64,000 nucleotides of DNA from an uncultured Actinomycetota bacterium (GCA_963814845.1 CAWFEP010000003.1:223485-287484); one strand, 5' to 3'. Positions 20,879 through 47,798 are shown, counted from the stretch's first letter. The notes: a model not told the origin generated them from the sequence alone. Program-made: numbers and translations.

Positions 20879-21093
20879 CCCGACCACCCCCACCAAGCAC
20901 TCTGGCATCGAACGTATGTTCGACTGGTATCCAACGTATCCGGTGGGTGGGACCGTTTCAAGGGCATGAGAACCGTTGGGGATAAACAAAAAACGGTCAC
21001 TTCGCGCACCTCGGCCACAACGGCGGTTAGCTGGCCGCTCGCATCACCAACGTCGAGATCGACGCAAAAGGCTCGTGAGCCGCGTCCACGTCA

Positions 21094-21671: not shown

Positions 21672-22598
21672 TTAGTGAGTGAGTGCCGCATAGGCCGTGG
21701 CGACCTCAGCGCCGAGCCGGGCGTTGTTGTTCACCAGCGCGATGTTGGCGGTAAGGCTGGCGCCGTCGGTGAGTTCCACGATCCGACGAAGCAGGAAGGG
21801 GGTGGCCTCCTTGCCGTGAATACCGCTGGCGTTCATCTCCTCGATGGCGTGCTCGATGATGCTGTCGATCTTCTCGGCGGGTATCTCGTCGGCAGTGGGG
21901 ATCGGGTTGGCCAACACAATGCCGCCGCCGATGCCGAGCTCCCACTTCGTCGCCATGATCGCGGCAATCTCGTCGGGAGTGTCGACGCGTACCGGCGCCT
22001 GATGCCCGCTGGTACGGGAGAAGAACGCGGGGAATTCATTCGTGCGGTACGCCAGAACTGGCACCCGCAACGTTTCCAGCGCCTCCAGCGTCAGTCCGAT
22101 GTCAAGAATGCTCTTCACTCCGGCGGAAATCACCGCGACGTCGGTAGTGGACAGCTCGGTGAGGTCGGCGCTGACATCGAGGGTGCGGTGACCGCCGCGA
22201 TGAACACCGCCGAGACCGCCGGTGACAAACACCCGGATCCCGGCGAGAGCCGCCAGCCGCATCGTCGCGGCGACGGTCGTCGCGCCGTGGCCGCCACTTG
22301 CGATGATGACCGGGAGGTCGCGCACACTGACCTTCGCGACCTCGGGGCTTGTCGCCAGCAGCTCGAGGTCCGCCGGCTCCAGGCCGATGCGTGGCGAGCC
22401 GCCCAGCACGGCGATCGTCGCCGGCACGGCGCCGAGGTCCCTGATGACCCGCTCCACGCCGGTCGCCATCTCGACGTTCTGCGGGTAGGGCATGCCGTGG
22501 CTGATGATCGTGCTTTCTAGCGCGACCACAGCGGCGCCATCTCGCAACGCTTGCGTCACCTCGTCGGTCACGACGAGAGAAGGGTTCCGGGTGGGCAC
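21672..22598 (-). CDS. psuG: Pseudouridine-5'-phosphate glycosidase
   Basis: Motifs ALESTIISHGMPYPQNVE and GGLGGVHRGG are typical of the PsuG / IndA-like family. Confidence 0.85.
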   Translation of the reverse strand: MPTRNPSLVVTDEVTQALRDGAAVVALESTIISHGMPYPQNVEMATGVERVIRDLGAVPATIAVLGGSPRIGLEPADLELLATSPEVAKVSVRDLPVIIASGGHGATTVAATMRLAALAGIRVFVTGGLGGVHRGGHRTLDVSADLTELSTTDVAVISAGVKSILDIGLTLEALETLRVPVLAYRTNEFPAFFSRTSGHQAPVRVDTPDEIAAIMATKWELGIGGGIVLANPIPTADEIPAEKIDSIIEHAIEEMNASGIHGKEATPFLLRRIVELTDGASLTANIALVNNNARLGAEVATAYAALTH

Positions 22599-22607
22599 AG
22601 GGTCTCC

Positions 22608-23749
22608 TCAGTGTGCGGCGGCTAAGGCGGTCTCGATGAGCCGCGGCGTGAGATCAGGGCGGACCGTGTGCGGACTAGCGAGGGTCAACACCGCGGCCGC
22701 CTGACCGAAGCGGGCTGCCTCGATCGGTTTCCAGTCATTGAGCACGGCGTAGCAGAACGCGGCGAGCATCGCGTCGCCCGCACCGGTCACGTCCTCAACC
22801 GCGGCCGCCATGGCAGCCTCCAACCACACCGAGCCGGACGAGGCAGTGCTGAACAGCGATCCTTGGGCGCCGAGGCGTACCCAGACATGTTCCACTCCGC
22901 GCCGATGCAGGCTGTCGGCTGCCTTGTGGAGTTGTTTATCGGTACGCGTGGAAAGCCCGGTCAGTGCTGCGAGCTCATCGCGGTTGGGGGTCACCGCGTA
23001 CAACGGCCGGTCCGCCGTAATGTACGACGCGATCAACGCCGCCTTGGGCACGCTGACCGGCTCGAGGATGGTGCGAACGTTGGCCGCCGCGGCGAGGTCG
23101 GTGGCATAGGTGAGCGCCGACATAGCAAGATTCCCATCCAGGACAAGCAGGCCCGCGGTCGTGATGACGTCGCGGGCCTCGTTGATCGGCCCTGGCCCAA
23201 GGGCGCCACCGCCGCCATGTCGGCAACGGCGACAATCAGTTCGCCGTCGCTGTCGAGCACGGCCGTATAGGTGCCGGTGGACAGCTCGGTGCGCTTCACG
23301 TACTCGCAGTGAACGCCGGCCGCAACAGTCTGGCCCAACAGCGTGTCGCCCAACGCGTCGCGACCAATCGCGCTGACGAGGAAGGTGCGCACCCCAAGGC
23401 GCGCAAGGTTTTCCGCGATGTTGCGACCTACCCCGCCAGGAGTCATCGAGGCCCAACCCGGGTTGCTGGTCGCCGGCCTGGCCCGATCGGTGCTACGAGC
23501 TTTGACGTCGACGTTCGCGCCGCCGATGACGACGGCTCCCGGCCGGTCGCCAAGGATGTAACCCCGGCCGAGGATGACGCCCTTCTTGCCGAGATTGGAC
23601 AAGTGCACATTGACCGACGCCCGAGAAGTGCCGAGCCGCTCGGCGATCGCTTCGGAGCCAATAAGTGGATCGCGGCGCAACATCTCCACGATCTCGCGTT
23701 CTCGCTCCGTCAAGCTCACGTTTAGCAGGCTAAGTCGGGCTTGTGACAA
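22608..23749 (-). CDS. HTH-fused PfkB-family carbohydrate kinase (pseudouridine kinase-like); 1 frameshift near 23225
   Basis: N-terminal wHTH ERLGTSRASVNVHLSNLGKKGVI. PfkB motifs VVIGGANVDVKA, GGVGRNIAENLARLG and DVTGAGDAMLAAF are split across two frames. Confidence 0.75.
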
Positions 23750-31355: not shown

Positions 31356-31454
31356 AGTTCGGTCATCGTGTCCGGCTCGCAGAGCTCAATGGCTAAGCGA
31401 ATGGCTACCCGTTGATCTTGAAGTGCACGTCGTGGCCGTCGCGAGGCCAACGTG

Positions 31455-31490
31455 CACTTTTGGTTGGAACTGAGAGGATTCGAACCCCTG
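31455..31490 (-). repeat. 36-nt fragment matching the 3' end (acceptor/T-arm) of tRNA-Ala; probable att direct repeat of a genomic island
   Basis: tggaactgagaggattcgaacccctgaccccttgca matches 50382-50417 at 34 of 36 positions, then diverges. No D-arm or anticodon 5' half is present. Confidence 0.65.
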
Positions 31491-31516
31491 ACCCCTTGCA
31501 GATATGGCACCCGGCC

Positions 31517-34123
31517 TTACAGGCGCGGGTCGACGGGTTCCGACTCGAGCGCGAGTACGGCAAACACGCACTCGTGGACCCGCCACAGCGGCTCGCCTCG
31601 TGCCGCCCGCTCGAGGGCCTCGAGCCCGAGCGCGTACTCGCGAGCGGCCAGAGACCGCTTGTGAGCGAGCCCACGTTGGCGGAGCCGTTCGAGGTTGGCG
31701 GGTTCGGTGTAGTCCGGGCCGTAGATGATTCGCAGGTATTCACGGCCGCGGACCTTGAGGCCTGGTTGCACGACGCCCTTGCGACCGCGGGCGAAGTTGA
31801 CGGTCGGCTTGACGACCATTCCCTCGCCCCCCGTCGCGGTGAGGTCGCTCCACCACCCGGCGGCGGCATCGGTTGCGGCCGGATCCGTGGTGTCGACCAG
31901 CCGTCGCTGTGTGGTGGCGATGAGTTCGGGATCAGCCGCCGCGAGCCGGTCAGCGACCTCGAGGTGCCAGGTGTGCGGGCGGTCGTGGTACGTCGAACCT
32001 TCTGTGGCGAGCACCTGAAACACGGCGATCTTGATGCCGTCGAGCCCTTCGGTGGGCCAGCAGTAGTGCCGGTAGGCGGCGGTGAAACCGTCGGCGTTGG
32101 TCCGACGGGAACGGGTCCGGGCGAGCAGTTCGCGGACGTCAAGGCCAGCCGTCGCAGCCTGCTCGAGGGTGCCGACGGCCGCCGGCAGCGCGTTGTGGGC
32201 GGCGGCGCCGACGGCGGCGTACTGGTTCTTCAGCAGGTCGAGCGCCTTGGCGCTCCACGGCATGAGCTCCGCATCGAGGACCAGCCAGTCGGTGTTGAGC
32301 TCGTCGAACAGTCCCGCGGCGTCGGCCGCGGCGCGCAGCCGGTGGACGAGTTGCTCGGTGAGCTCGTGGCCGAAGAAGGGTCGACCGGTCCGGGTGTGGA
32401 CTGCGCCCGGCGCCCCACCGGGCGCGCCGAACCTGCGTTGTGCGGCGTCATCGGATCGGGGCACCACGAGGACCGCGCGTGATCCCATGTGCTTCTCTTC
32501 GCAGATGACCGAGTCGATGCCGTCGGCCCGATAGGCGTCGAAGGCCTGGTCCGGGTGCTCGAGGATCCCGTCGCGGGACGAGGTGGCGACCGGGCTCATC
32601 GTGGGCGGCAGGTAGACCAGCCAGCGCGGGTCTAGGGCAAACCGGCTCATCACCTCAAGTGCGGCCGCGGCGTTCTCGGCTCGAACGCTGACCCGGCCGT
32701 GGTGCTGGGTCTCGACCACCCTGGTGCCGGTGACATCAGCGATGTCGAGCACGTCCGGGTCGACTCGGCCCGCGCTTCCGTCGCCGGTGGCCGATTCGTT
32801 CACCGGGAACGGCTTGACGGGTGCGTAGTAGACCTCGGCCGCCGGCACCGAGACCAACTCTCGCTCGGGATAGCGCAGCGCGGTGAGCTGGCCGCCGAAG
32901 ACACAGCCGGTGTCCAGGCACAACGTGTTGTTCACCCACTCGGGAGCGGGGATCGGGGTGTGGCCGTACAAGACCATCGCCCGGCCGCGGTAGTCGTTGG
33001 CCCACGGGTAGCGGACCGGCAACCCGAACTCGTCGGTCTCACCAGTGGTGTCGCCGTACAGGCAGAACGACCGCACCCGACCCGAAGCTCGACCTTGATA
33101 GCGCTCGGAGATGCCGGCGTGAGCGATCACGAGTTGCCCGGCGTCGAGCACATAGTGAGAGATGAGCCCGTCGAGGAACGCCTCGACCGCGGCCCGGAAC
33201 TCGCCCGGCTCGGTCTCGAGCTGCGCGAGGGACTCGGCCAGCCCGTGAGTGATCTGCACCTTGCGGCCACGCAGAGCGCGCAGGAGTTTGTTCTCATGGT
33301 TGCCGGCGACGCACATCGCATCGCCGTCCGCGACCATCCCCATGACCAGCCGCAGGACACCCGGCGTGTCCGGCCCACGGTCGACCAGGTCGCCGACGAA
33401 CAACACCCGCCGACCGTCGGGCCGGTGAGCCCCGACGGGACGACCTCGGTCGTCACGGGCGATCAAGTAGCCGAGCTCAGCGAGCAGCTCCTCGAGCTCC
33501 GCACGACAGCCGTGGATGTCGCCGATGACGTCGAACGGTCCGGCCTCGTGGCGCAGGTCGTTATACAGCCGGTTGCGCACGATGGTTGCCGCATCGACCT
33601 CTGCCGGACCCTTGAGCACGTGGACGGTGCGGAAGCCCTCGCGCTGCAGGCCGCGAAGGCTGCGGCGCAGCATCGAGTGCTGCCGGCGGATGACGTGCTC
33701 GCCGAAGTCGCGGTCGGACCTGGCCGCGTTGCGCTCGACGCAGATCCGCTCCGGAACGTCGAGGACAATGGCGACCGGGAGTACGTCGTGGTCGCGCGCC
33801 AGGGCGACCAACGCCTTGCGTGCCTCCGGCTGCACGCTGGTCGCATCGATCACCGTCAGCCGGCCAGCGGCCAGGCGCTTGGCCGCGATGTAGTGCAGCA
33901 GGTCGAACGCGTCAGGAGTCGCCGCTTGGTCGTTCTCGTTGTCAGCGACCAGACCACGACAGAAGTCGCTGCTGATGACTTCGGTCGCGGCGAAGTTTCG
34001 GGCGGCGAACGTCGATTTGCCGGAGCCCGTCACGCCCATCAGCACGACCAGACTGAGGGCCGGCACGGCAAGCTCGCGAGGAGTGGCCTCGGTGATGCCC
34101 GAGGCCTCGAGGGTGTCGGTCAT
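31517..34123 (-). CDS. pnkp: Bacterial polynucleotide kinase-phosphatase with C-terminal ligase-like domain (Pnkp, RNA repair)
   Basis: 868-aa intact ORF. N-terminal P-loop kinase GVTGSGKST; central calcineurin-type phosphoesterase GDIHGC / GDLVDRGPD / GNHE; C-terminal nucleotidyltransferase-like domain with EEKHMGSRAV. Confidence 0.85.
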   Translation of the reverse strand: MTDTLEASGITEATPRELAVPALSLVVLMGVTGSGKSTFAARNFAATEVISSDFCRGLVADNENDQAATPDAFDLLHYIAAKRLAAGRLTVIDATSVQPEARKALVALARDHDVLPVAIVLDVPERICVERNAARSDRDFGEHVIRRQHSMLRRSLRGLQREGFRTVHVLKGPAEVDAATIVRNRLYNDLRHEAGPFDVIGDIHGCRAELEELLAELGYLIARDDRGRPVGAHRPDGRRVLFVGDLVDRGPDTPGVLRLVMGMVADGDAMCVAGNHENKLLRALRGRKVQITHGLAESLAQLETEPGEFRAAVEAFLDGLISHYVLDAGQLVIAHAGISERYQGRASGRVRSFCLYGDTTGETDEFGLPVRYPWANDYRGRAMVLYGHTPIPAPEWVNNTLCLDTGCVFGGQLTALRYPERELVSVPAAEVYYAPVKPFPVNESATGDGSAGRVDPDVLDIADVTGTRVVETQHHGRVSVRAENAAAALEVMSRFALDPRWLVYLPPTMSPVATSSRDGILEHPDQAFDAYRADGIDSVICEEKHMGSRAVLVVPRSDDAAQRRFGAPGGAPGAVHTRTGRPFFGHELTEQLVHRLRAAADAAGLFDELNTDWLVLDAELMPWSAKALDLLKNQYAAVGAAAHNALPAAVGTLEQAATAGLDVRELLARTRSRRTNADGFTAAYRHYCWPTEGLDGIKIAVFQVLATEGSTYHDRPHTWHLEVADRLAAADPELIATTQRRLVDTTDPAATDAAAGWWSDLTATGGEGMVVKPTVNFARGRKGVVQPGLKVRGREYLRIIYGPDYTEPANLERLRQRGLAHKRSLAAREYALGLEALERAARGEPLWRVHECVFAVLALESEPVDPRL

Positions 34124-35607
34124 CCGGCGATGCTCATCTCGTCGGCGTCCTTGGTGAAGACGACCATCTGAGTCGGCGGACCGACGTCGGGGTCATCGGT
34201 GCCGACCGGCAGGAACCGAGCCCCGTACGAGTACGTCGCCGCGACCCGCGCCGCCCAGTCCTGAAACTCCTGTCGGGTCCACTCGAACCGGTGGTCGCGA
34301 TGGCGCATCGCACCCGCTGTCAAGCTCTCGAAGCGGACGTTGTGCTCGACGTTCGGCGTGGTCACGATGACCGTCGTCGGAGCCGCGTCGCCGAAGACCG
34401 TGCGCTCGAGCGCTGGCAGCCGCGGCAGGTCGACGTGCTCGATCACTTCCATCAGCACCGCCGCGTCAAGACCTGCAAGCCGGTTATCCCGGTAGGTCAG
34501 TGCTGACTGCAACAGCGAGATGCGCTCGAGCTGCCGGTCGGTCATCCGATCGAGCTTGAGCCGGCGAGCCGCGACGTCCAATGCGCGAGCGGAGACGTCC
34601 GCACCGACGACATGGACGAACGCCGAGTCACCGACGAGCTTCACCAGCAAAGCGCCGTCACCGCACCCGAGATCGGCGATGCGGCGAGCACCCGAGGAAT
34701 GCAGCGCTGCGATGACCGCCCCTTGCCGCTGCTGGGCGAGCGGAACCGGACGGTCCGGCTCGTCACCGACATTTGCGGCGTCAGTCGCGTTGTCGAGGTC
34801 CTCCGGCTCGGTGTCATCGACCTCGGCGATCCGCGCAACGGCGGTCCGTACCAGGGCGGATCGATGCGAGAGGTAGCGGCGGGTGATCAGATCTCGTTCC
34901 GGATGGGTGGCCAGCCAGCCCTCCCCCGCACGGACCAATTTGTCTACCTCGTCCGTGCTCACCCAGTAGTGCTTCGCGTTGTCCAGGACCGGCAGCAGCA
35001 CGTACAGGTGGTTCAGCGCATCCGCCAGCCGGTGCGTCCCCGTGAGGCGAAGGTCGACATACCGGGAGTCGCCCCAGTCCGGGAACTGTTCGTCGAGTGG
35101 CACCGCGGCCGCCGAGACAGTCCAGCCAAGCGGATCGAACAGGCTCCTCGCCAGCTCCGTGCCTCCGCTGCAGGGAAGGGCCGGCAGGTGGATTTCAAGC
35201 GGAAGTGCCGTGGCCACGAGCTCGGGGCGAGCGTCGCACCGACCGGCCATCGCGGTCTTGAATACTCGCGACATCGCGACGGCCAGCATGCTTGACGCGG
35301 CGTACGGGCGATCGTTGACGTACTGCCGCAGCGCGAAGTCGCCACCACCGCGCCCCTTGTGCCCCCGCACCAGCCCTACCGGATCGATCTCCAGTAGCAG
35401 TGCCACGGTGCATCGGTCGTCGGCAGAGTCCGGGTAGAACACGTGGGCAACACCACTCGCGATCTCGAACGACTGGACCTTGGCCGGGTGCTTATGCAGG
35501 AGAAAGCCCAGATCGGTCGCCGGGGCCCGGGTCGTGGTCAAGGTGAGCAGCACAAGGACAGTCTCCCCTGGCAGACCTCCTTCAGCCTGAGCATTTTTCA
35601 TCAGCAA
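34120..35607 (-). CDS. hen1: Bacterial Hen1 RNA 3'-terminal 2'-O-methyltransferase
   Basis: C-terminal SAM-binding motif IADLGCGDGALL and the Hen1 metal-site motif EVIEHV. The N-terminus VLLTLTTTRAPATDLGFLLHKHP is typical of bacterial Hen1. It overlaps pnkp by 4 nt. The true start may be at ~35559. Confidence 0.8.
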   Translation of the reverse strand: MLMKNAQAEGGLPGETVLVLLTLTTTRAPATDLGFLLHKHPAKVQSFEIASGVAHVFYPDSADDRCTVALLLEIDPVGLVRGHKGRGGGDFALRQYVNDRPYAASSMLAVAMSRVFKTAMAGRCDARPELVATALPLEIHLPALPCSGGTELARSLFDPLGWTVSAAAVPLDEQFPDWGDSRYVDLRLTGTHRLADALNHLYVLLPVLDNAKHYWVSTDEVDKLVRAGEGWLATHPERDLITRRYLSHRSALVRTAVARIAEVDDTEPEDLDNATDAANVGDEPDRPVPLAQQRQGAVIAALHSSGARRIADLGCGDGALLVKLVGDSAFVHVVGADVSARALDVAARRLKLDRMTDRQLERISLLQSALTYRDNRLAGLDAAVLMEVIEHVDLPRLPALERTVFGDAAPTTVIVTTPNVEHNVRFESLTAGAMRHRDHRFEWTRQEFQDWAARVAATYSYGARFLPVGTDDPDVGPPTQMVVFTKDADEMSIAG

Positions 35608-35730
35608 CCCGCAACCTCGACGGTCAAACCGATCTGTGCGTCCTGCGTGCCCGCATCATGCGCGCCGGGTCTAACGAACGCGCAGCAAGAGTCGTCGACC
35701 ACTTTGGCGTCGCTAGTGATCGCTGCCGCG

Positions 35731-36006
35731 ATGAAGTTGAGCGCGCCGGACGACGGGCATGAAGTGACGACAGGCCCAGAACTCCAACGGGAATACAACG
35801 CCGAAGACGAGAACCCCGACCCTTGGACCTACGTCCGCGCCATCAAGGTTCAGGTCGACATGGCAACCGAGCAATACAAAGACCGCGCTTCGCACCGCCC
35901 AGCACTTTCCGCACCCGCGTCATATCGACGCTGGCACGTCTACGCCGGACTCACAATCACTTTCGCCCTCATCTTGATCGGCTGGGTCGCGATCTCGGCT
36001 CTGTAA
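35731..36006 (+). CDS. Small membrane-anchored hypothetical protein
   Basis: ~91 aa with a C-terminal TM helix GLTITFALILIGWVAISAL. The upstream part of the track ORF looks non-coding. Confidence 0.4.
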   Translation: MKLSAPDDGHEVTTGPELQREYNAEDENPDPWTYVRAIKVQVDMATEQYKDRASHRPALSAPASYRRWHVYAGLTITFALILIGWVAISAL

Positions 36007-36092
36007 CTTGGCGCGTTCGAGCCAGCAGAATTTGACGCGCCGACGCCCGGGCTGGGAGACAGCGGATCGGAAACGAACGGAAAAGTATGCGG

Positions 36093-36683
36093 TCAGCTCG
36101 CGCTTCCCGCGGAGACTTCCGGCACAGCCATCGGACTCTCGAACGCGTTGATGAGTTGCTGCTGAGTCCAGGTCGGGGAGACGAGTGCGTAAAGCTGGTC
36201 GTTGTTGCCATCCGAGAACTGGACGTACAGCGCGTTGTCCCCGGTGTTCGGCTCCGTGCCAATCCAGGTCTTCGCATTCGGATTGGTCGTGGTCACCGGT
36301 GTGGCGCCATCGGGGACACTTGAGAAGCCCACCTCGGCGTAGAGCTGAACTGGCGAGCCTGCCGTTGCTTGATACGAAATCGTGAAGCCCGCCAGCCTGA
36401 CCTTCCTGATCACCAGCGCCTTCTTGGCTGGATGAGCCGCCGGCGTTGAGGACGGGTGGTGGGGCGCCGGCCTCGCGCTCGCGCCAACCGCGGGTGTCGA
36501 GGGGTGGTTGATCTCGATGGCCGCGACGGCGGCTCCGGTCAGCACCGCTCCTGCGGCCACCGCCGGCAGGACCGTGGACAGCACCTGGCGAGGCGGGCGG
36601 GTCCGTCCGGTGTAGATCAGGCCCTCGGTCGCATCCTGAAAAGCACTCCCGAGCGAGCGGGTCAGATCGTCATCAGTCAACAT
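36093..36683 (-). CDS. Putative anti-sigma factor (membrane-spanning)
   Basis: A TM helix follows a short N-terminal cytoplasmic segment. It lies directly downstream of the ECF sigma gene and overlaps it. Confidence 0.55.
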   Translation of the reverse strand: MLTDDDLTRSLGSAFQDATEGLIYTGRTRPPRQVLSTVLPAVAAGAVLTGAAVAAIEINHPSTPAVGASARPAPHHPSSTPAAHPAKKALVIRKVRLAGFTISYQATAGSPVQLYAEVGFSSVPDGATPVTTTNPNAKTWIGTEPNTGDNALYVQFSDGNNDQLYALVSPTWTQQQLINAFESPMAVPEVSAGSAS

Positions 36684-37176
36684 GTGCGGTCTCCTGTGTA
36701 GGTGTGAGGGCGGCCCGGAGGTTGTCCAAGGCTCGTGCGGTCTGTGACTTGACGGTGCCGGTGGTGCAGCCGAGTACGGCAGCGGTCTCCTCGATGCTCA
36801 AGTCGTCGAAGTACCTGAGCACCAGGACAGTCCGCTGCCCGAGTGGGAGCCGGTGGGCCGCCCGCAGGATCGCGTCACGGTCCTCAACGCTTCCGACGTT
36901 CGGCGCGGGGAGGTCGATCTCCAGCGGTCCTTCGGCGGGTCGATGGCTCAGCTCGCGCCAACGATCCTTGGCCAGGTTGACTACCACCCGACGGGCATAC
37001 GCCTCGGGGCGATCCCGGGCTCGCCGCCACTGACGCGCGGTGCGCATCAAAGCGGTCTGGACCAGGTCCTCGGCGTGCCCTCGATCACCGCACAGCAGGT
37101 ACGCCGTACGCAGCAACCGGCTCGACGATGACAACACGAACGAGTCGAACGCGGGCCGGTCACGCCGCGAGATCAT
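36673..37176 (-). CDS. ECF-type sigma-70 family RNA polymerase sigma factor
   Basis: Region 2 DLVQTALMRTARQWRR; region 4 QRTVLVLRYFDDLSIEETAAVLGCTTGTVKSQTARAL. Confidence 0.85.
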   Translation of the reverse strand: MISRRDRPAFDSFVLSSSSRLLRTAYLLCGDRGHAEDLVQTALMRTARQWRRARDRPEAYARRVVVNLAKDRWRELSHRPAEGPLEIDLPAPNVGSVEDRDAILRAAHRLPLGQRTVLVLRYFDDLSIEETAAVLGCTTGTVKSQTARALDNLRAALTPTQETAHVD

Positions 37177-37356
37177 CGGATACCCATCGTCGTCACACCT
37201 CTACTAACGCCCACAATCCCCGCAAAGTTGTCACCGCACAGTGAGAACCTGTCGCGCGATCACGCCGCCACGCAGGGCTACCCGCCGCGAGCAGGAGGTC
37301 GCTTGCGTCGATTAGTGTCACGCCGGATCGCGAGCACCTATTTGTCTCGCTAGCGG

Positions 37357-37854
37357 CTACGACTGGTTCTCGCGAGGAGTGAATCGACGCGAGGGACTGC
37401 GGTGCTTGGTGTCGGGAAGCCACAGCCGGTGACTGATTTCGAAACGTGGACCCGACCGTGTCAGGGTTGGCATCGTCAGGACTGCTGCACCGGCTGGGTT
37501 GCGAAACTCCGCTGTGAACTCGCGATCCCTAACGCTGACGTGGACACGGGCGCCCTCCACGGGCCAGTACAGCCGAAACGGGTCCTCATCCGACCGTACG
37601 GGCCGCCGGTCGGCACCGAGACCCCGGGCCGCCCACTCGTATACCTCTTGCACTGCCAGGCGCCACTTGGTCCGCGACGGCATCGGCGGCCACGGCAGGC
37701 TTCCCAGCGGAATGCCGAACCAGCCACCGCCATCCGGGGCGCGACCATCGAACACGCGGCCGGTCAACTCCATCGATGACCCCGGTGGCATGACCGGCTC
37801 AAAACTCGCGAGGATCTCCTCGACAAGTGCAATCGGTAGCGCCCGAATGCTCAT
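37357..37854 (-). CDS. Hypothetical protein
   Basis: 165-aa ORF inside the lower-GC island with no recognisable motif. Confidence 0.45.
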   Translation of the reverse strand: MSIRALPIALVEEILASFEPVMPPGSSMELTGRVFDGRAPDGGGWFGIPLGSLPWPPMPSRTKWRLAVQEVYEWAARGLGADRRPVRSDEDPFRLYWPVEGARVHVSVRDREFTAEFRNPAGAAVLTMPTLTRSGPRFEISHRLWLPDTKHRSPSRRFTPRENQS

Positions 37855-37977
37855 TGGTGCAAGTGTCCCATTCGGCGCACGCGATCCTCAGCGTTCAGCG
37901 GCTGCGAGCGCACGGCAGAGCCAGACCATTGCGCCGAAGAACGGCACTCATGCGCGGTCGGCCACCGCAGAGTACGA

Positions 37978-38400
37978 CTAGTGGCAGCCGACTGTCGTAG
38001 CTCGCGTTCCTGCTGCTGCCGGCGGGAGGATGCCGCGTATCGCGTTGTCCAGCTTGCACTTGGTGTCGACATACCCGGCTGGCTTCGAGCCCGGACGAGT
38101 GATGATGACCAATGCAGCGCATCGATACCCAGTAATCACCGTGCCGCTTGCGATGCGCTTGGCGTGCACCACCGTCACTCGGTAGTCGAGGTCTAGCGGG
38201 TCCATGCAGTCAACATGGGACGCCTCGGGAAGCGCTGCGATCAGGCTGAAGACTCGCTCGGATTGCGATCGGGTGAGGTCCACCGACACCGCACCAGATG
38301 TCTTGAACACCGTCACTGACCTGTATCCGGTGAGTTGGGCGGCGGGTGGCGATCCACCCGCACAGGACGACACAACGACCACTAAGCCGACAGCAGCCAT
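37978..38400 (-). CDS. Putative lipoprotein
   Basis: Signal peptide with lipobox AAVGLVVVVSSC. Start chosen at the internal Met; the track start is at 38493. Confidence 0.5.
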   Translation of the reverse strand: MAAVGLVVVVSSCAGGSPPAAQLTGYRSVTVFKTSGAVSVDLTRSQSERVFSLIAALPEASHVDCMDPLDLDYRVTVVHAKRIASGTVITGYRCAALVIITRPGSKPAGYVDTKCKLDNAIRGILPPAAAGTRATTVGCH

Positions 38401-38559
38401 CCGAGGTAAGACCTTCACCAAGTCAGACTCCCACGACAGACCGGCGCCTTCGGTACCACAAATCGGGGAACCAAACCTGCGCGCGCGGCACATCGCGATC
38501 GGCTCTGGTGCCTACACAAATAGTGGTTCTTTGCACCGTGAGCCTGCCAGGCTGTTCGG

Positions 38560-39156
38560 GTGACGACATTTGATGAGGACGGGGTTCCAACTCTCACGTG
38601 GGGGATCAGTGCCTCGCACAACCCGTCCGAGCTCGTCGTCCCGTTGTATGTGCGTGACCGGCTCGGGCTGCGAACAACGACAAACGTTCCGGCGCTGTCG
38701 CCGCGCGTGCGAGCTATCCCGAGCAAGGATCTCGACGTCGCGTCCGCGTCGGCGTCATGGGACCGCGTGTGGGAGGTGATCACCCTCGATCTAGATGGCT
38801 ACTCCCCGTTCACACCGGCGCGGTTCTACGGCCTGACCGCGCACCCGGGATTGATCGGGCCGTGGACGTTGCTCTACGAGGAAGCCTGCGCCTGGGTGGC
38901 TGCGCTTCCCGGGGGCAGGGAGTTGGTAGCGCGCGAGAAACGTCACCCGCTACACGTCCAGATGCTTGTGGAGAATCTTGAGAACGAGCTGGGGCGACCC
39001 GTCAAGCCATTCCATCTGGAGTTCACGGTTCTGCCCGTCGACGGAGTCTGGTGGGACCGCACGGCTGACGGTCGCGTCTATCTCTCCGACGCGCTTGTTG
39101 CAAACACCGACACGTACACGTCTGTGTTACGGCAGCTTCTTGAACCCATTGCCTGA
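38560..39156 (+). CDS. Hypothetical protein
   Basis: 198-aa ORF in lower-GC DNA with no motif. Confidence 0.5.
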   Translation: MTTFDEDGVPTLTWGISASHNPSELVVPLYVRDRLGLRTTTNVPALSPRVRAIPSKDLDVASASASWDRVWEVITLDLDGYSPFTPARFYGLTAHPGLIGPWTLLYEEACAWVAALPGGRELVAREKRHPLHVQMLVENLENELGRPVKPFHLEFTVLPVDGVWWDRTADGRVYLSDALVANTDTYTSVLRQLLEPIA

Positions 39157-39195
39157 CGCCTCATCGAACGCTCGGGAACGACGGATCGAGTGCGC

Positions 39196-40502
39196 GCGAG
39201 CGGCAGGGATGTTGACTGGTGACGTTCTCCCGCCCGGCCTGACTCGAATGAGCGGCCGGCACCTTTCGAGGTTGTCCTGTAGGTGATCCGTCGACCGGGC
39301 GGGAGAACACCTTTGCACGTACCGCTGGTGGGAGTGACCTAGTAGGAGCCTGGTCTAGAGGCCCCGTCCCTGTCCTGTCCGACCTTCGGCTGTGCGTGCC
39401 TGCCCTGCTCATACGACTGAGAGGACCGGCGTGACCACGATTGCATCTACGACGCTCAATGTCATTGGGGGTGTGGACACGCATGCGGATGTTCATGTCG
39501 CTGCGGCGTGTGACCAGCTCGGTTCGGTGCTCGGGGTTGAGTCCTTCCCGACGACGCCGCGTGGTTACCGGTCGCTGCTGGCCTACCTGCGCGGGTTCGG
39601 TCCGCTGGCGAAGGTCGGGGTGGAGGGCACCGGTTCCTACGGTGTCGGGTTGGCGCGGCATCTCGCGCGTGAGGGTGTTGAGGTGATTGAGGTGAACCGG
39701 CCGAACCGTCAGGTCCGTCGCCGGCACGGCAAGACCGATGTGGTCGATGCGATCGCGGCGGCTCGAGCGGTGATCAATGGGGACGCGACCGGGCGCCCGA
39801 AAAGTCATGACGGTGGGGTGGAATCGTTGCGGGTGCTCACGATGGTGCACCGCAGCGCGAACAAGTCACGCACCCAGGCGTTGAACCAGATCCGGGACCT
39901 GATCACGACCGCACCCGAGCAGCTGCGCACCGAACTGCGGGAACTGAAGCGTCCCGCGCTGCTCGCGACCTGCGCGGCGTTCCGGCCGGCTGACCGTGAC
40001 GACCTGGCCACCGTCACGAAACTGTCACTGCGCGGGCTGGCGCGTCGATCATCGACCTCGACGACGAACTCGTCATGCTCGACGCCCGCCGCCGGCGGAT
40101 CACCACCACCATCGCACCCGAGCTCTGCGCCGCGTTCGGGGTCGGCCCCGACACCGCCGCCGGGCTGCTGATGGCCGCCGGTGACAACCCGCAACGTCTG
40201 CGCAACGAACAGTCCTGGGCGGCGCTGCTCGGGTCCAACCCGATCGAAGCGTCATCAGGCAAGATCGTGCGGCACCGGCTCAACCGCGGCGGTGACCGGC
40301 AAGGAAACAGCGCCCTATGGCGGATCGTGTTCGTCCGGATGGGCAACGACCCCACCACCAAGGCCTACGTCGAACGACGTACCAAAGAAGGCAAAACCAA
40401 GTCCGAGATCATGCGATGCCTCAAGCGCTACGTCGCCCGCGAAACCTTCGACCTACTGCCCCGCGAACTCCAAATTTGACAGTAGGAGCATCACCTATTC
40501 GA
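39196..40502 (+). mobile_element. IS110-family insertion sequence, copy 1 (~1.3 kb)
   Basis: Nucleotide identity with copy 2 begins at gcgcgcgagcggcag and ends at aatttgacagtaggagcatcacct. It encodes a DEDD-type IS110 transposase and has no terminal inverted repeats. Confidence 0.8.
39392..40479 (+). CDS. IS110-family transposase; 1-nt deletion near 40050 relative to copy 2
   Basis: NVIGGVDTHADVHVAA is the DEDD transposase N-terminus. The two track ORFs 39392-40171 and 40075-40479 join into a protein identical in pattern to copy 2. Confidence 0.75.
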
Positions 40503-40586
40503 CGGTGAGCGTCGAGTCGTCGAGCGTCAACAACCAACCTCCGCGTTCTCCACCAGAGGACGATTGAAGCCGCTACTGTCAGGCGC

Positions 40587-40973
40587 ATGACGGCACCCGA
40601 CGACCTGACCTACCTGGGGATGGTCGCCGCGTTCAGCCTTGGCGCCCTAATGGCCGTTGATCACCAGCGTGCTAGCAGGACCCTTCACAGAGTCCGGAAC
40701 TCGCTGATTGTGGTGACCATCGCGTTGTACGCCGGGAACATCGCCAACGTGAAGGGCAATAACCCCCTCGGGATCCCCAGCCTGACTGGTGCCCTCAACT
40801 GTGGTCACGGCTGTCCGGACTATGTCTCCGCGCCGGGCGTCAACCCTGACTCGTTCCAGGCGTTCGCGCTTGACGCGCTTCTGCTGTTTGGTGCCGTCGC
40901 GGTTGGGTACCTGGTTGTCGCCCTGATCAGGAGTGCCACCATCCGAGGTCACGGCAGCACCTCCAACATCTGA
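40587..40973 (+). CDS. Small integral membrane protein (hypothetical) between the two IS copies
   Basis: 128 aa with 3 TM helices. Confidence 0.45.
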   Translation: MTAPDDLTYLGMVAAFSLGALMAVDHQRASRTLHRVRNSLIVVTIALYAGNIANVKGNNPLGIPSLTGALNCGHGCPDYVSAPGVNPDSFQAFALDALLLFGAVAVGYLVVALIRSATIRGHGSTSNI

Positions 40974-41019
40974 GCCACCAGCCTTCGGCAACCCAACCAC
41001 AGGTCACTGGGAGCCAAAC

Positions 41020-42326
41020 GCGCGCGAGCGGCAGGGATGTTGACTGGTGACGTTCTCCCGCCCGGCCTGACTCGAATGAGCGGCCGGCACCTTTCGAGGT
41101 TGTCCTGTAGGTGATCCGTCGACCGGGCGGGAGAACACCTTTGCACGTACCGCTGGTGGGAGTGACCTAGTAGGAGCCTGGTCTAGAGGCCCCGTCCCTG
41201 TCCTGTCCGACCGTTGGCTGTGCGTGCCTGCCCTGCTCATGTGACTGAGAGGACCGGCGTGACCACGATTGCATTAACGACGCTCAATGTCATTGGGGGT
41301 GTGGACACGCATGCGGATGTTCATGTCGCTGCGGCGTGTGACCAGCTCGGTTCGGTGCTCGGGGTTGAGTCCTTCGCGACGACGCCGCGTGGTTACCGGT
41401 CGCTGCTGACCTACCTGCGCGAGTTCGGTCCGCTAGCGAAGGTCGGAGTCGAAGGCACCGGTTCCTACGGTGTCGGGTTGGCGCGGCATCTCGCGCGTGA
41501 GGGTGTTGAGGTGATTGAGGTGAACCGGCCGAACCGTCAGGTCCGTCGCCGGCACGGCAAGACCGATGTGGTCGATGCGATCGCGGCGGCTCGAGCGGTG
41601 ATCAATGGGGACGCGACCGGGCACCCGAAAAGTCATGACGGTGGGGTGGAATCGTTGCGGGTGCTCACGATGGTGCACCGCAGCGCGAACAAGTCACGCA
41701 CCCAGGCGCTGAACCAGATCCGGGACCTGATCACCACCGCACCCGAGCAGCTGCGCACCGAACTGCGAGAACTGAAGCGTCCCGCGCTGCTCGCGACCTG
41801 CGCGGCGTTCCGGCCCACCGACCGTGACGACCTGGCCACCGTCACGAAACTGTCACTGCGCGGGCTAGCGCGTCGCATCATCGACCTCGACGACGAACTC
41901 GTCATGCTCGACACCCGCCGCCGGCGGATCACCACCACCATCGCACCCGAGCTCTGCGCCGCGTTCGGGGTCGGCCCCGACACCGCCGCCGGGCTGCTGA
42001 TGGCCGCCGGTGACAACCCGCAACGTCTGCGCAACGAACAGTCCTGGGCGGCGCTGCTCGGGTCCAACCCGATCAACGCGTCATCAGGCAAGATCGTGCG
42101 ACACCGGCTCAACCGCGGCGGTGACCGGCAAGGAAACAGCGCCCTATGGCGGATCGTGTTCGTCCGGATGGGCAACGACCCCGTCACCAAGGCTTACGTC
42201 GAACGACGTACCAAAGAAGGCAAAACCAAGACCGAGATCATGCGATGCCTCAAACGCTACGTCGCCCGCGAAACCTTCGAACTACTCCCACGCGAACTCC
42301 GAATTTGACAGTAGGAGCATCACCTC
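41020..42326 (+). mobile_element. IS110-family insertion sequence, copy 2 (~1.3 kb)
   Basis: Near-identical to copy 1 over the whole length, in direct orientation 517 bp downstream. Confidence 0.8.
41214..42308 (+). CDS. IS110-family transposase (intact, 364 aa)
   Basis: Carries the DEDD_Tnp_IS110 N-terminus and the C-terminal transposase_20 domain LLGSNPINASSGKIVRHRLNRGGDRQGN. Confidence 0.85.
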   Translation: MAVRACPAHVTERTGVTTIALTTLNVIGGVDTHADVHVAAACDQLGSVLGVESFATTPRGYRSLLTYLREFGPLAKVGVEGTGSYGVGLARHLAREGVEVIEVNRPNRQVRRRHGKTDVVDAIAAARAVINGDATGHPKSHDGGVESLRVLTMVHRSANKSRTQALNQIRDLITTAPEQLRTELRELKRPALLATCAAFRPTDRDDLATVTKLSLRGLARRIIDLDDELVMLDTRRRRITTTIAPELCAAFGVGPDTAAGLLMAAGDNPQRLRNEQSWAALLGSNPINASSGKIVRHRLNRGGDRQGNSALWRIVFVRMGNDPVTKAYVERRTKEGKTKTEIMRCLKRYVARETFELLPRELRI

Positions 42327-42455
42327 TGTGCGCTGCCAACTGGTCTTAGACATGGGAGCAGACCTGGCGCTTGGGTTGTCGCAGGCGACAGCTCAAAGGG
42401 CAACTCCATCCGACGAGTGCCGCCTGGCCAGTCCAGGGGCTTCTATCCTCGGCGG

Positions 42456-43019
42456 ATGGCAACAGAGGTGCTGCCGGCGACTGGCCGCTGGGATGACTTC
42501 GCATCGTTCATGGTGCCGCGACGCGGAGGCAGCGGATGCGTGTGCATGGCGTACCGCAACTCCAGCCTGGACATGACGGGCCGGGTCGGACACATGAAGT
42601 CGCTGTGCGAAAGCGACCCAGGCCCGGGGGTTCTGGCTTACGTCGACGGCGAGGTGGCAGGCTGGTGCTCCATCGCGCCGAAGGAGTCGTATCGCGCTCT
42701 GGTCAACTCACGCACGATCCCGCATCTCGACGACGACGGTGTTTGGTCCGTGGTGTGCTTCGTCGTTCGGCCCGGCTACCGACGCCGCGGGCTGATGCAC
42801 CACCTCCTGGACGGTGCCGTCGCGCATGCGCAAGGGATGGGTGCCCCCGCGTTGGAGGGCTACCCGGTCGATGCTGGCGACGACCGGATTGACCAGACCA
42901 GCGGTTACGTCGGCACGGTGAAGCTCTTCGAGACTCACGGGTTCGACCGAAGCTGTCAGACCTCCGGTCGCAGAGGCGGCAAGCCTCGCTGGCTTGTCCG
43001 GCGGGACCTGTCGCCATAA
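42456..43019 (+). CDS. GNAT-family N-acetyltransferase
   Basis: Acetyl-CoA-binding motif VVRPGYRRRGLMHHLLDGAVAHAQGMG. Confidence 0.7.
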   Translation: MATEVLPATGRWDDFASFMVPRRGGSGCVCMAYRNSSLDMTGRVGHMKSLCESDPGPGVLAYVDGEVAGWCSIAPKESYRALVNSRTIPHLDDDGVWSVVCFVVRPGYRRRGLMHHLLDGAVAHAQGMGAPALEGYPVDAGDDRIDQTSGYVGTVKLFETHGFDRSCQTSGRRGGKPRWLVRRDLSP

Positions 43020-43247
43020 CCCATCTCGTCATCATCGTCGACCGACGACTCACCGAGGCGAAGAGAAACTAAAGCAAGATCAACGTCTGTTTCCGAACGA
43101 AAATGTCCGTCACTCGCTCGTCCACTCGCCCGACCCGGAAGTGATCAAGAACGCCGGTTCTGTTCGGCGCGCGCGAGACGAATGAAGGCCGCGCGCCTTC
43201 TCCGAACCGAGTGCCTCTCGGGCCTTACTCGCGGCCGAGAGCTCAGG

Positions 43248-44150
43248 TCAGTCGGCCGAGGCGAGGATCGAGTGTTGGATTGCTAGGAGGGCCCGTTCGG
43301 CTATCTCATAGCCAGATGCGTCCCAACCGGTCTGTGTAAGCAGCGCTCTCGACGCGACGCAGAGTGCGCTGAGGCTGGCTGAGATCTGCGCGGTGGCCTC
43401 GGCCGGAGCTATGTCGCGCAGCCTGGCTCGGTACTTCTCCGGGGCTGGGCTACGGAATTCGAGATGCTTAAGAAGTACGTTCAGCGTTGCGTGAGTGATC
43501 CCGGACGTGTCGCGATAGAACATCGCCGCGTACGTTGAGTTGCCGATCGTCTCACCCAATAGCGCCATGGTTGAGATGCGCTGTTCGCCGACCCAACCTG
43601 CACGTCGGTTGGTCGGTCGTTCTGTCGCCAAGTGGTGTTCCGATTCGGCGACATCGAGCAGGCGATTAGCCGTGACCATCTGCCAAGAACTGTCCAGGGC
43701 GGCAACGGCGCTCGTGTAGCGCCAATCCTCGTGAAGCGCGTACAGCCTCTCGTTGATCATGCGACGGATGCGCTCATCGGGATCAACGGAGGTCGTTAGC
43801 AGAAGCCAAGATCGGGCGGCGGCCTCTCCAAGTGGTCTGCTGGCCGACAGGAGGGCCAGTGAGCGAGCGGAATCCAACAGGTCGGCCACAGCGAGCGCCT
43901 GGTCGTTGACCACGTACCAGAGGATCGCGCCGGTGCGATAGGCGTCCTGCAACGGTTCGTCTCCCCAGCCGCTCGCTCTCTCGTGTGCGTCCCAGTCCGT
44001 GACTGCCGGTGAGTCCGGCGTGAAGTCCCAGTTGTTGGAGTCGCCCGCCCGGTTAACCTCTGCGACCAGGGCTCTGATCGCCCCCGCGAGGGCCTCGCGC
44101 AGTGACTCGATCACCGTGTCCATCTGCCAATCATCTCCGGCCGACGCCAT
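43248..44150 (-). CDS. Hypothetical protein
   Basis: ~300-aa ORF with no motif. Start taken at MASAGDDWQ. Confidence 0.45.
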   Translation of the reverse strand: MASAGDDWQMDTVIESLREALAGAIRALVAEVNRAGDSNNWDFTPDSPAVTDWDAHERASGWGDEPLQDAYRTGAILWYVVNDQALAVADLLDSARSLALLSASRPLGEAAARSWLLLTTSVDPDERIRRMINERLYALHEDWRYTSAVAALDSSWQMVTANRLLDVAESEHHLATERPTNRRAGWVGEQRISTMALLGETIGNSTYAAMFYRDTSGITHATLNVLLKHLEFRSPAPEKYRARLRDIAPAEATAQISASLSALCVASRALLTQTGWDASGYEIAERALLAIQHSILASAD

Positions 44151-44273
44151 CAGTGTTGGGCGAACATAGCCGGCGCTCTGTCCGTCGCTGATCTTCGGCT
44201 TCGTCACCGGTTTTCGCTCAACACGCCGCCGCACTGGTCGCGAGCGCGAAGATCAGCGGACCGCGCTGGCAGC

Positions 44274-44774
44274 TCAAGCACTCGGCCCTTCCCAAAACAG
44301 TTCGAGCTGGATGTTGTCCGGATCCCGAAAGGTGATCATTCGATTCGCGGTGTAGGCGGGGGACTTCACACCTGAGTGAGTCACGCCGAGCTCGTCGAGC
44401 CAACTCGCCCAACCGTCTAACTCATCGCCCGCTGAAACGAAGAACTCAACGTGGTCAAGCCCGGCTCGTGTCTCGTTGAAAGGCTCACCGCTGTTCTGGC
44501 CATGGCTCAGCAGACAGAGGGTGAAGCCGGAGTGGCTGTCCTGAAGGCAGATCTGCTGGACCAGACCTTCGACATCCATCTGCTGTCCAGTGACTTCGAA
44601 GCCGAAGACACTCTGGTACCAAGCGGCACTCACCACCGGATCACGGACCGTGAGAATCAAGCCAATCCGACCATTGATCGCGGGCATGGCCGAAGTCTGC
44701 CGCAAGGGGGCTTGTTGGGTCACCCGCGCGCCGAACCGAGGTGCCGTTATCGGGCGGGTGGTCGGCATGATCAT
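44274..44774 (-). CDS. VOC (glyoxalase/bleomycin-resistance/dioxygenase) family protein
   Basis: A VOC-fold protein with the motif HVEFFV. The start codon is uncertain. Confidence 0.6.
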   Translation of the reverse strand: MIMPTTRPITAPRFGARVTQQAPLRQTSAMPAINGRIGLILTVRDPVVSAAWYQSVFGFEVTGQQMDVEGLVQQICLQDSHSGFTLCLLSHGQNSGEPFNETRAGLDHVEFFVSAGDELDGWASWLDELGVTHSGVKSPAYTANRMITFRDPDNIQLELFWEGPSA

Positions 44775-45248
44775 TACCTCGCACACGTGCCTGTGAGAGA
44801 TGATGGGCCGGTGCCGGACGCTCACCGACAATTCCGCGTGGTCACAGGAGTAGCGAGAGTGACGCTCGCCCTAAGAAAGGAGGGCTGTCGAACCCCTTGA
44901 CGCTGCCGACCTCGAGCATCACCTTCAGGTTTGTGGACGGACCGAACACCGGAGCTGGAACGGTCGCCATCCTGGACATCATTGGCGGATCGGAGATCGC
45001 GGCCAGGACGGTGGCCGATCCCGGTGACGTTCCCGATGCTCCTGAGGGCGAGGACTTCGGTTCCAGACGCTTCGAGTTGTGGGCGGGGCGACCGATCGGC
45101 GAGGCTGTCGTCACTGCCTTCGATGAGCGCTCATAGGCCGATAGTCCCGCCGCGCAGAGGCGACGTTCTGCGCGCGGCAGGGGCTCGACGTTCTCGATTG
45201 GTATGCGGAAAGATCCAACTAGAGGCTCGTTATCCGCGTCTGTCAGTC

Positions 45249-45939
45249 ATGAGGTTCCTTCGAGTCGGTTTACTTGCCGCGATCGTTCTGTTGCCTGCCT
45301 GCTCGGGACCGTTGCAGCCGGTCGCCGCACCGGAGAACCCCGTCGGGTCGAGCGCGGGGACGTCCGGCTTGATCGGGGAGCCATCGGTGTCACCTGCTCG
45401 GTCCAACCGGTCGATGACAGGCGGGTTGAAGCCATCGCGACAGGTCGAACGTGTCGTCGCTTCCAAGGTGTTCGGCGGGTGCTCTCGTTGTTTCCTTCCA
45501 ATACTTGGATGCGGGAACGATGGACTCCTACGGCGCGATCCAGGTGGTGAACGCAGGCAAGGCCGCGTGCCGGATATTACGGAATCTGACAGTACGAACA
45601 CGAGGCGAGGGACCAATGCCGCGACTGACGAGTGTCCGAGGAGCCGTCTCCCGTCAGCAAGCAGTTCTCAAGCCCGGTAGCGCGCTGCGGGCGGCTACGG
45701 GCACGGTGCCTGACAACTTGTTGCACGCGCGAGGTTGCAACGCTGCCACGAAGGTCGAAGTGCACGTTGAGGGCATGAGGCCTCCCATCGCGATACCAGT
45801 GTCATCCCTGCACGGTAAGTCGCGACTCATCCTGCACTTCTGCCACGTACGGATGACAGTTGGACCGCTCCGAAGCGCCCACCGCGGACGTGAAACGCCC
45901 AGTGAGCAGTCACCGCATCCTTACAGCGACCAGAGGTGA
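45249..45939 (+). CDS. Putative lipoprotein (hypothetical); 1 frameshift near 45450
   Basis: Lipobox MRFLRVGLLAAIVLLPACSG. The body continues in the frame of track ORF 45451-45939. Confidence 0.4.
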
Positions 45940-46246
45940 CGTTATCCGACAGTCGATGACCGTGGCGCGAAAGATGAATAACGGGTCCCCTCTGCGCGGT
46001 TTGATGATCCTGAATCAGGCGGGCTTGTGCCCGGGCATGGGATTCTTGTCGTAGATTCCGATGGGTGACGTTGATCGGTAGTGCTGAAGGGGCTATCAGC
46101 ACCGACTTCGCGATTATGAATGCCCACCAAACGAGCGCGCATTAGGAACTCAGCGGGCCAATGGCGTTCGCGACCTCTCACCCGGGGTTTGTCGACTTGA
46201 TCTGCGGCACCAAGTATGCCGAGGTCTCAGTCCCGGTTGGAGGTCC

Positions 46247-47170: not shown

Positions 47171-47222
47171 AGCGCGAGCAAGCGCTTACTTAGAAGGCTG
47201 GATCAAGTGTGCTGGACCGGCA

Positions 47223-47651
47223 CTACTGATCGTTGCTTAGTCGACGGCCGAACCAGCCAGAATCCCGATCTTGAGGCGGATCGGCAGACCGGTCACGCAG
47301 GTAGTTCGGGGTCCGATCAAGTCGACGGACAACGAGCCGGTCGGGGAACTTAATCTCGACTCGTTGACCGCCGATCTCCCAGCGACATCCCCAAAACGGA
47401 CCCATCATCAGTATCGGCACGGGGCTGTCGCCGACCGTCACCGCATCTGGCACACCATCGTGAACCCGGCCCCACACGAATCGGTGTCCGGCAGTGATGT
47501 CTGCATTCTGTTCGACCGGCCACCAGTCATCAGGCTCAAGTTCAATGGCCCCCGCTCGCTCGTCAGCTAGCTGATCGGGCGAGACTTCGCGACATAGGCC
47601 GTCTTCACGCTGTTGAAGAATGCAGTCGCCAAGGTCAAGGCTCTGAATCAC
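47223..47651 (-). CDS. Hypothetical protein
   Basis: 142-aa ORF with no motif. Confidence 0.4.
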   Translation of the reverse strand: MIQSLDLGDCILQQREDGLCREVSPDQLADERAGAIELEPDDWWPVEQNADITAGHRFVWGRVHDGVPDAVTVGDSPVPILMMGPFWGCRWEIGGQRVEIKFPDRLVVRRLDRTPNYLRDRSADPPQDRDSGWFGRRLSNDQ

Positions 47652-47798
47652 GACCGCACGATAACGCCTGATGTCCGAGTCCGAGCGGCTTTTCAGTTCG
47701 AGTACCGCGTGGGTCCTTCGTGAGGAAGCGAGATCACTCCGGTCGGTCCCCGACCTGATCTAGACCCGCAGGAGCGGCATCCGAGCCTTCGCCTGTCC

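Follow-up and report, generated by a model that had tools for sequence, protein, structure and literature searches.

Introduction

The closest described counterparts of the locus treated here, a hen1-pnkp gene pair in a 64,000-nucleotide stretch of DNA from an uncultured Actinomycetota bacterium (GCA_963814845.1, CAWFEP010000003.1:223485-287484; hereafter the window, with positions counted from its first letter), are the Pnkp-Hen1 RNA repair systems of Clostridium thermocellum and Anabaena variabilis. In C. thermocellum (PDB 4gp6, 4j6o, 3ty8, 4drf, 4dqz and 3jwg), a three-domain Pnkp is paired with a two-domain Hen1, and the hen1 and pnkp open reading frames (ORFs) are adjacent and co-oriented, all as in the window; the clostridial Pnkp is about 56% identical to the window protein, and the essential kinase, phosphatase and ligase residues are common to both. 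The window differs from this system in its host, a member of the Actinomycetota with a high-GC genome, and in a 15-residue N-terminal extension of its Pnkp. The Anabaena system (PDB 3jwh and 3jwj) follows the same operon logic, with hen1 first and coupled translation, and its Hen1 methyltransferase matches the window domain with an E value of 7e-68 and identical catalytic motifs; we detected no functionally significant difference between the two. In Capnocytophaga gingivalis (PDB 4xru and 4xrp), Pnkp1, Rnl and Hen1 share the same overall repair and methylation chemistry, but the ligase is a protein of its own and hen1 lies unlinked, whereas the window has its ligase fused into Pnkp and hen1 next door. 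The similarity of the Capnocytophaga Rnl and Hen1 to the window proteins is weak (E about 1e-6 to 1e-7), and an assignment of the window locus to this three-component type was rejected on the grounds of the fused ligase, the adjacent hen1 and the weak similarity.

Results

Domains and catalytic residues of Pnkp and Hen1

Judged by the sequence, there is little doubt that hen1 and pnkp form a canonical, functional RNA repair cassette of the bacterial Pnkp-Hen1 kind, in the normal hen1-then-pnkp order. Pnkp matches the NCBIfam equivalog TIGR04075 with 1422 bits (cut-off 750) over profile positions 2-851 of 851, and divides into the Pfam domains AAA_33 (the kinase, residues 25-151), Metallophos (196-392) and PNKP_ligase (PF16542, residues 487-863, E 1.7e-184). 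We then aligned the protein to the C. thermocellum sequence and mapped it onto the residues found essential by the Shuman laboratory, all 17 of which are kept. In the ligase, the adenylylation lysine is K544, located in KHMGS (a KxxG motif), and the surrounding EEKHMGSR aligns to EQKHMGSR of C. thermocellum, in which the corresponding lysine is presumably K531. The kinase retains the P-loop residues K36 and S37, the general base D53, and R56, R131, R135 and R138, equivalent to K21, S22, D38, R41, R116, R120 and R123 of C. thermocellum, where we take R116 to be a catalytic residue. The roles of six of these seven essential kinase residues are documented (PMC3902929), as are the metal and phosphate ligands of the C. 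thermocellum phosphatase, D187, H189, D233, R237, N263, H264, H323, H376 and D392 (PMC3675462), whose counterparts in the window protein are D202, H204, D245, R249, N275, H276, H335, H388 and D404.

Hen1 matches its own equivalog, TIGR04074, with 715 bits (cut-off 340) over the full profile (positions 1-462 of 462). Residues 19-260 form the Hen1_L domain (PF12623, E 1.9e-119, profile positions 1-241 of 242), followed by a class-I methyltransferase domain. A reading of the window made from the sequence alone (the sequence-only reading) had expected a PF12623-like, lantibiotic-associated domain; the family is right, while the association is not, as PF12623 is the region of Hen1 that associates with the Pnkp ligase. 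By analogy with the characterised systems, Hen1_L of the window would bind and activate the ligase domain of Pnkp. In the methyltransferase domain, the S-adenosylmethionine-binding motifs ADLGCG and GADV are present, and so is the Hen1-specific E-x-x-E-H ... H metal site, represented by MEVIEH and HRDHRFEW; all four sequences align to the enzymes of Anabaena, C. thermocellum and humans. The four metal ligands (E387, E390, H391 and H439, numbered along the 495-residue ORF discussed below) align to plant HEN1 and to E132/E135/H136/H181 of human HEN1 (PMC10781085).

Both genes are intact and under purifying selection: relative to three close relatives, the ratio of nonsynonymous to synonymous substitution rates (dN/dS) is 0.08-0.12 for pnkp and 0.07-0.13 for hen1. 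Thus, the equivalog matches, the domains with solved homologs, and the retained P-loop, phosphoesterase, ligase and methyltransferase residues bear out what the sequence-only reading had proposed, namely an intact Pnkp/Hen1 RNA repair pair in a window with frameshifts elsewhere. At least two genes do carry such frameshifts, namely one of two copies of an IS110 insertion sequence and a PfkB-family kinase gene. A consistently linked third gene was not found, the best flanking cluster recurring in 22 of 86 loci and reflecting genus-level synteny; the cassette is self-contained.

Gene order across the family

The sequence-only reading had described the order of the two genes as inverted, taking pnkp to precede hen1 in the reference operons, and had proposed a comparison of gene order across actinobacterial homologs. 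We scanned one genome per species and found a relative in at least 579 species, of which the best 80 loci were kept. In all 79 informative loci, hen1 lies directly upstream of pnkp and in the same orientation; the 80th ends at a contig end and is uninformative for gene order. The same hen1-first arrangement is present in the three closest metagenomic relatives (88-93% amino acid identity) and on four annotated plasmids, from Nostoc (Cyanobacteriota), Leptospira (Spirochaetota), Methylobacterium (Alphaproteobacteria) and Deinococcus (Deinococcota). In agreement with these counts, a supplementary figure legend on the Anabaena operon speaks of "Hen1 being synthesized first", and a figure legend from the Shuman laboratory names 'Hen1 and Pnkp' in this order. 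The literature, the 79 loci and the plasmids thus rule out the inverted order, which goes back to a mistaken view of the reference operons: hen1-then-pnkp is the canonical order, and nothing about the operon is unusual. On the Deinococcus plasmid (D. ficus pDFI2), two genes with nucleotidyltransferase domains and a hypothetical gene stand between hen1 and pnkp, all of them co-oriented and with overlapping ends. These nucleotidyltransferases may be counterparts of RlaP, which a preprint links to RNA ligases (PMC12776372).

Start codons, overlap and flanking signals

An ORF listing of the window places both genes on the minus strand with a 4-nt overlap, as the sequence-only reading had it. Its 495-residue Hen1 holds as the longest ORF (34120..35607, minus strand, from a TTG at 35607), but as the product a protein of 477 residues is likelier. 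Conservation with two close relatives, L081 and L082, makes the GTG at 35553 the likely start codon: nucleotide homology of hen1 to its nearest relatives sets in at this GTG, and both L081 and L082 keep a GGGAGA equivalent to the Shine-Dalgarno-like element upstream of it (Table 1).

At the junction of the two genes (GGATGACC), the TGA of hen1 overlaps the ATG of pnkp, which suggests that translation of the two is coupled. Of 82 loci, 61 offer a start codon that would produce the same 4-nt overlap, and 14 others could have an overlap of 1 nt; the 4-nt overlap is a family trait of Pnkp-Hen1 loci, and the two proteins have been termed 'co-translational' (PMC4411300). Public records already hold a 477-residue Hen1 and an 868-residue Pnkp product, so this locus has been sequenced before.

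A promoter scan returned no sigma-70-like promoter, as expected for a high-GC actinobacterium. Downstream of pnkp, directly after a tRNA fragment (see below), we observed an inverted repeat of 10 bp without mismatches, AAGTGCACGT ... ACGTGCACTT, whose inner stem is GC-rich (31411-31449, minus strand), plausibly a terminator lacking a T-run. Taken as a whole, the region downstream of pnkp does not fold significantly (z -1.2), though it contains this perfect 10-bp hairpin.

Table 1. Coordinates of the hen1-pnkp cassette and of features in its surroundings (window positions).
Feature	Position	Strand	Remarks
pnkp (polynucleotide 5'-kinase / 2',3'-phosphatase / RNA ligase)	31517..34123	-	868 aa, ATG start
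Pnkp kinase domain	33581..34075	-	PDB 4gp6, E 3.5e-59
Pnkp binuclear metallophosphoesterase domain	32816..33571	-	PDB 4j6o, E 5.9e-103
Pnkp ligase (adenylyltransferase) domain	31520..32665	-	PDB 4drf, E 2e-136; 3ty8, E 3e-127
hen1	34120..35553	-	477 aa from the likely GTG start at 35553
Hen1 N-terminal domain (Hen1_L, PF12623)	34828..35553	-	C. thermocellum Hen1-N, PDB 4dqz/4drf, E 1.4e-87
Hen1 C-terminal Mn2+-dependent methyltransferase domain	34153..34755	-	PDB 3jwh (Anabaena), E 7e-68; 3jwg (C. thermocellum), E 8e-64
Shine-Dalgarno-like GGGGAG	35563..35568	-	9 nt upstream of the hen1 GTG; read from sequence
ATGA overlap, hen1 stop / pnkp start	34120..34123	-	junction sequence
Partial tRNA-Ala copy, candidate distal att site	31450..31500	-	51-nt direct repeat, 16 nt past the pnkp stop
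Intact tRNA-Ala(GGC)	50381-50454	-	ARAGORN; Rfam RF00005, 66.2 bits
Low-GC interior of the bracketed segment	35608..50380	.	context, outside the repair system
ECF sigma factor in the interior	36673-37200	-	profile match
IS110 copy 1	39192-40496		1-nt indel splits the ORF
IS110 copy 2	41020-42325		intact 373-aa transposase (DEDD_Tnp_IS110 + Transposase_20)
PfkB-family kinase, frameshifted	22614-23569	-	two tblastn pieces in different frames
Indigoidine_A (IndA, pseudouridine glycosidase-like), intact	21672-22607	-	follows PfkB

Probable exchange of the hen1-pnkp pair between genomic contexts

Comparison with close relatives bears on how the cassette reached its present position, and in these comparisons the hen1-pnkp pair appears to behave as a discrete, horizontally exchanged module. 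In four relatives that are 88-93% identical, homology to the window extends from about 20-25 nt before the hen1 GTG to at most 10 nt from the pnkp stop, and the neighbours are different each time. In L081, the cassette lies between a Usp gene upstream and an aldo-keto reductase gene downstream; in L082, UPF0182 and tRNA-Met genes are found upstream; in a further relative, L087, a monooxygenase gene precedes it and a DUF1801 gene follows; the window has yet another set of neighbours. No synteny beyond the cassette was detected between the window genes and the 80 genome loci.

The cassette of L087 is 91% identical at the nucleotide level over exactly 35573-31510 of the window, and this homology breaks at 31510/31509, just before the tRNA fragment. 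Beyond the cassette and the small DUF1801 gene, L087 carries PfkB and IndA genes that match window positions 23534-21669 at 82%; in the window, these two genes lie 8 kb beyond the tRNA fragment. (The PfkB-family kinase has an apparent N-terminal helix-turn-helix extension, read from the translation.) Synonymous divergence (dS) from L087 rises from 0.28-0.31 in the cassette to 0.54 in IndA and about 0.8 in PfkB, suggesting that the exchange of the cassette is more recent than the divergence of its neighbours; in the case of PfkB, a pseudogene in the window, the divergence may be inflated for that reason.

Plasmids point in the same direction. A full-length Pnkp is encoded on at least 15 plasmids in PLSDB, six rows of which are annotated with both genes; the four records that we opened all carry hen1 and pnkp, one of them on a 25.6-kb MOBQ plasmid. 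On this plasmid (Methylobacterium sp. AMS5 pAMS5b), a recombinase gene comes after the cassette, and a gene annotated as 'ribonuclease domain-containing protein', a possible toxin partner, lies about 1.8 kb downstream. Related modules have been reported on a jumbo phage and on Borgs.

These observations, together with a base composition of the cassette that differs from that of the DNA upstream of it (below), argue for a 4.06-kb hen1-pnkp pair exchanged as a unit, with the tRNA fragment and the segment interior arising from separate insertions or rearrangements on either side. We give this history roughly an even chance. Against it, there is no visible means by which the pair could move by itself: no recombinase gene flanks the cassette in the five closest relatives or in the window, where inverted repeats at the cassette ends were not specifically sought; moreover, an attachment-site-like (att-like) repeat is so close to the cassette that coincidence is uncomfortable.

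A tRNA-Ala repeat brackets the cassette and its upstream region

This repeat is a partial copy of the only tRNA gene in the window, an intact tRNA-Ala(GGC). The direct repeat pairs 31450-31500 with 50367-50417 (51 nt, 88% identity) and includes a 25-nt exact core, for which shuffles of the window gave 0 matches. According to BLAST, the fragment covers tRNA positions 38-73, from the 3' strand of the anticodon stem through the 3' end, and the repeat takes in 14 nt of trailer as well. Site-specific integration into a tRNA gene classically leaves such a pair, an intact tRNA gene and a repeat of its 3' half. No further degenerate tRNA fragments, which would point to tandem islands, were found. The two repeats bracket 18.9 kb, with hen1-pnkp at the distal edge; the interior contains the two IS110 copies (97.3% identity over 1306 nt), a gene for an extracytoplasmic function (ECF) sigma factor, GNAT, glyoxalase and DUF4232 genes, and many orphan ORFs. 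In pSAM2-type tRNA-integrated elements, an intact tRNA gene is likewise accompanied by a direct repeat of its 3' part, and the atypical interior and the size of 18.9 kb add to the likeness. Unlike these elements, the window segment has no detected integrase, excisionase, replication or transfer genes; in addition, its repeat is only 88% identical, and the segment is mosaic.

This geometry raises a second history, in which the cassette came with an element inserted into tRNA-Ala(GGC), which survives without an integrase as the remnant 31501-50380, the cassette lying at the distal end. We hold this tentatively, as a possibility that falls behind exchange of the pair as a unit. In its favour, the 51-nt repeat with its exact core starts at the 3' strand of the anticodon stem, the classical pattern for actinomycete integrative elements, and lies 16 nt past the pnkp stop; the cassette is geometrically between both repeats; the interior is low in GC and carries IS110 copies along with many orphan ORFs; and in L082 the cassette begins 44 nt after a tRNA-Met gene. 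That gene, a tRNA-Met(CAT) at 5045-5119 of the L082 contig, is co-oriented with hen1 and makes L082 (88% identical) a second case of the cassette adjoining a tRNA gene; no repeat of it was found within the 13-kb contig.

Several results speak against arrival with such an element. No integrase or remnant of one was found in the sizeable interior ORFs (Pfam, NCBIfam and PHROGs) or when the 3.2 kb next to the tRNA gene (47200-50380) were scanned against Pfam in six frames, the only recombinase-type matches in the interior being the IS110 transposases. In composition, the cassette resembles the flanks rather than the interior: its GC content is 0.682 versus 0.639 for the interior, GC at third codon positions (GC3) is 0.79-0.84 versus about 0.73, closest to the flanks, and the tetranucleotide distance between cassette and interior is 0.243, compared with 0.163 for interior chunks against the rest of the interior. 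L087, moreover, joins the cassette to the PfkB-IndA pair, which in the window lies outside the bracket. Finally, no empty site turned up: no sufficiently close relative of the flanking M20 peptidase lies in a tRNA-Ala context, the more distant ones are not syntenic, and two exact-pattern scans of metagenomes, one with the att fragment and one with the tRNA plus trailer, gave no match.

The island context is therefore real as geometry and ambiguous as history. Of the sequence-only reading, which had placed the cassette at the edge of a tRNA-bounded island and had considered horizontal acquisition likely, the geometry stands, and exchange of the module is supported by dS and by the sharp homology ends; arrival as cargo of the tRNA island is only a possibility. 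It is tempting to speculate that the module was captured at the distal att end of an element integrated in tRNA-Ala that has since lost its integrase, and that it served this element against anticodon nucleases or against a ribotoxin of its own. We think this unlikely.

Some further features of the surroundings are recorded here. The ECF sigma factor gene (here delimited as 36673-37176) overlaps by 11 nt a downstream ORF of 196 residues without a family match (region 36093-37200, minus strand), which may encode an anti-sigma factor; the two share the direction of hen1-pnkp and are located some 540 nt upstream of hen1, in an arrangement that the relatives do not keep. Just past tRNA-Ala, GC climbs abruptly from about 0.64 to 0.70-0.75 (approximately 50.5-64 kb of the window), and genes in this part include those for a VWA CoxE-like protein and a MoxR/AAA ATPase, as well as an aldehyde dehydrogenase ORF that matches its profile only from position 121 to 300 of 461 and may be frameshifted. 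In the left flank, a DUF222 protein is encoded at 19703-21043 (minus strand), a marker of a variable genomic region; we take DUF222 to be the HNH-endonuclease-associated '13E12 repeat' family typical of actinobacteria.

Discussion

Homology with the C. thermocellum and Anabaena systems leads us to expect that Hen1 and Pnkp of the window are produced by coupled translation from the ATGA overlap and assemble as a (Pnkp)2(Hen1)2 complex. In this complex, the kinase of Pnkp would phosphorylate the 5' end and its metallophosphoesterase would take off the cyclic phosphate, after which the C-terminal, Mn2+-dependent methyltransferase of Hen1 would methylate the 2'-OH of the 3'-terminal nucleoside, and the Pnkp ligase, activated by the N-terminal domain of Hen1, would seal the break. 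The repaired junction is predicted to resist re-cleavage at the same site. These activities, the formation of the complex, the in vivo substrate and any ribotoxin that is countered are what we infer from the characterised systems.

Nothing counts against the Pnkp-Hen1 identification itself. It comes with caveats. In the search for a ribotoxin or defence partner near the locus, the orphan ORFs matched nothing in Pfam, NCBIfam, PHROGs or PADLOC (10 ORFs in the case of PADLOC). In addition, we know of no actinobacterial Pnkp-Hen1 that has been characterised biochemically, and the physiological role of Pnkp-Hen1 is unproven even in model organisms. The absence of a detected ribotoxin or anticodon nuclease near the locus (profile searches and PADLOC) would also fit a pair whose main role is at DNA ends or in RNA maturation and not in ribotoxin defence, as would an in vivo role that is not established and crystallised complexes of the C. 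thermocellum kinase that take DNA oligonucleotides as phosphate acceptors (PMC3902929). However, the ribose 2'-O-methylation by Hen1 and the 2',3'-cyclic phosphodiesterase chemistry are RNA-specific, and the in vitro reconstitution by others used ribotoxin-cleaved RNA; we regard such a role as improbable. As for a novel operon variant, with an order inverted relative to the characterised Pnkp/Hen1 operons and implying a different regulation or assembly, its only basis was the statement in the sequence-only reading, and with Hen1 made first in Anabaena according to the literature and hen1 leading in every informative locus, in the three close relatives and on plasmids of four further phyla, we give it practically no credence.

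The locus is thus an ordinary representative of a known, well-characterised system, one named automatically by annotation pipelines. The system has been documented already, as have the order of its genes, the coupling of translation through the overlap and its occurrence on mobile replicons. Beyond correct annotation, its importance is little, the residual curiosity being an RNA repair module next to an att-like repeat. Its value is that it shows hen1-first cleanly as the universal order, and that the dS values and the differing flanks give quantitative support for a pair moving as a sharply bounded unit among related actinobacteria. It also offers a concrete locus in which an RNA repair module adjoins a tRNA-derived att-like repeat, and thus a test of whether such modules travel with integrative elements. 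If the module did serve an element integrated in tRNA-Ala, the locus would be an actinobacterial counterpart to Pnkp/Rnl1 of phage T4, and the targets would be anticodon nucleases of the host or of competitors, or a ribotoxin among the unannotated ORFs of the island.

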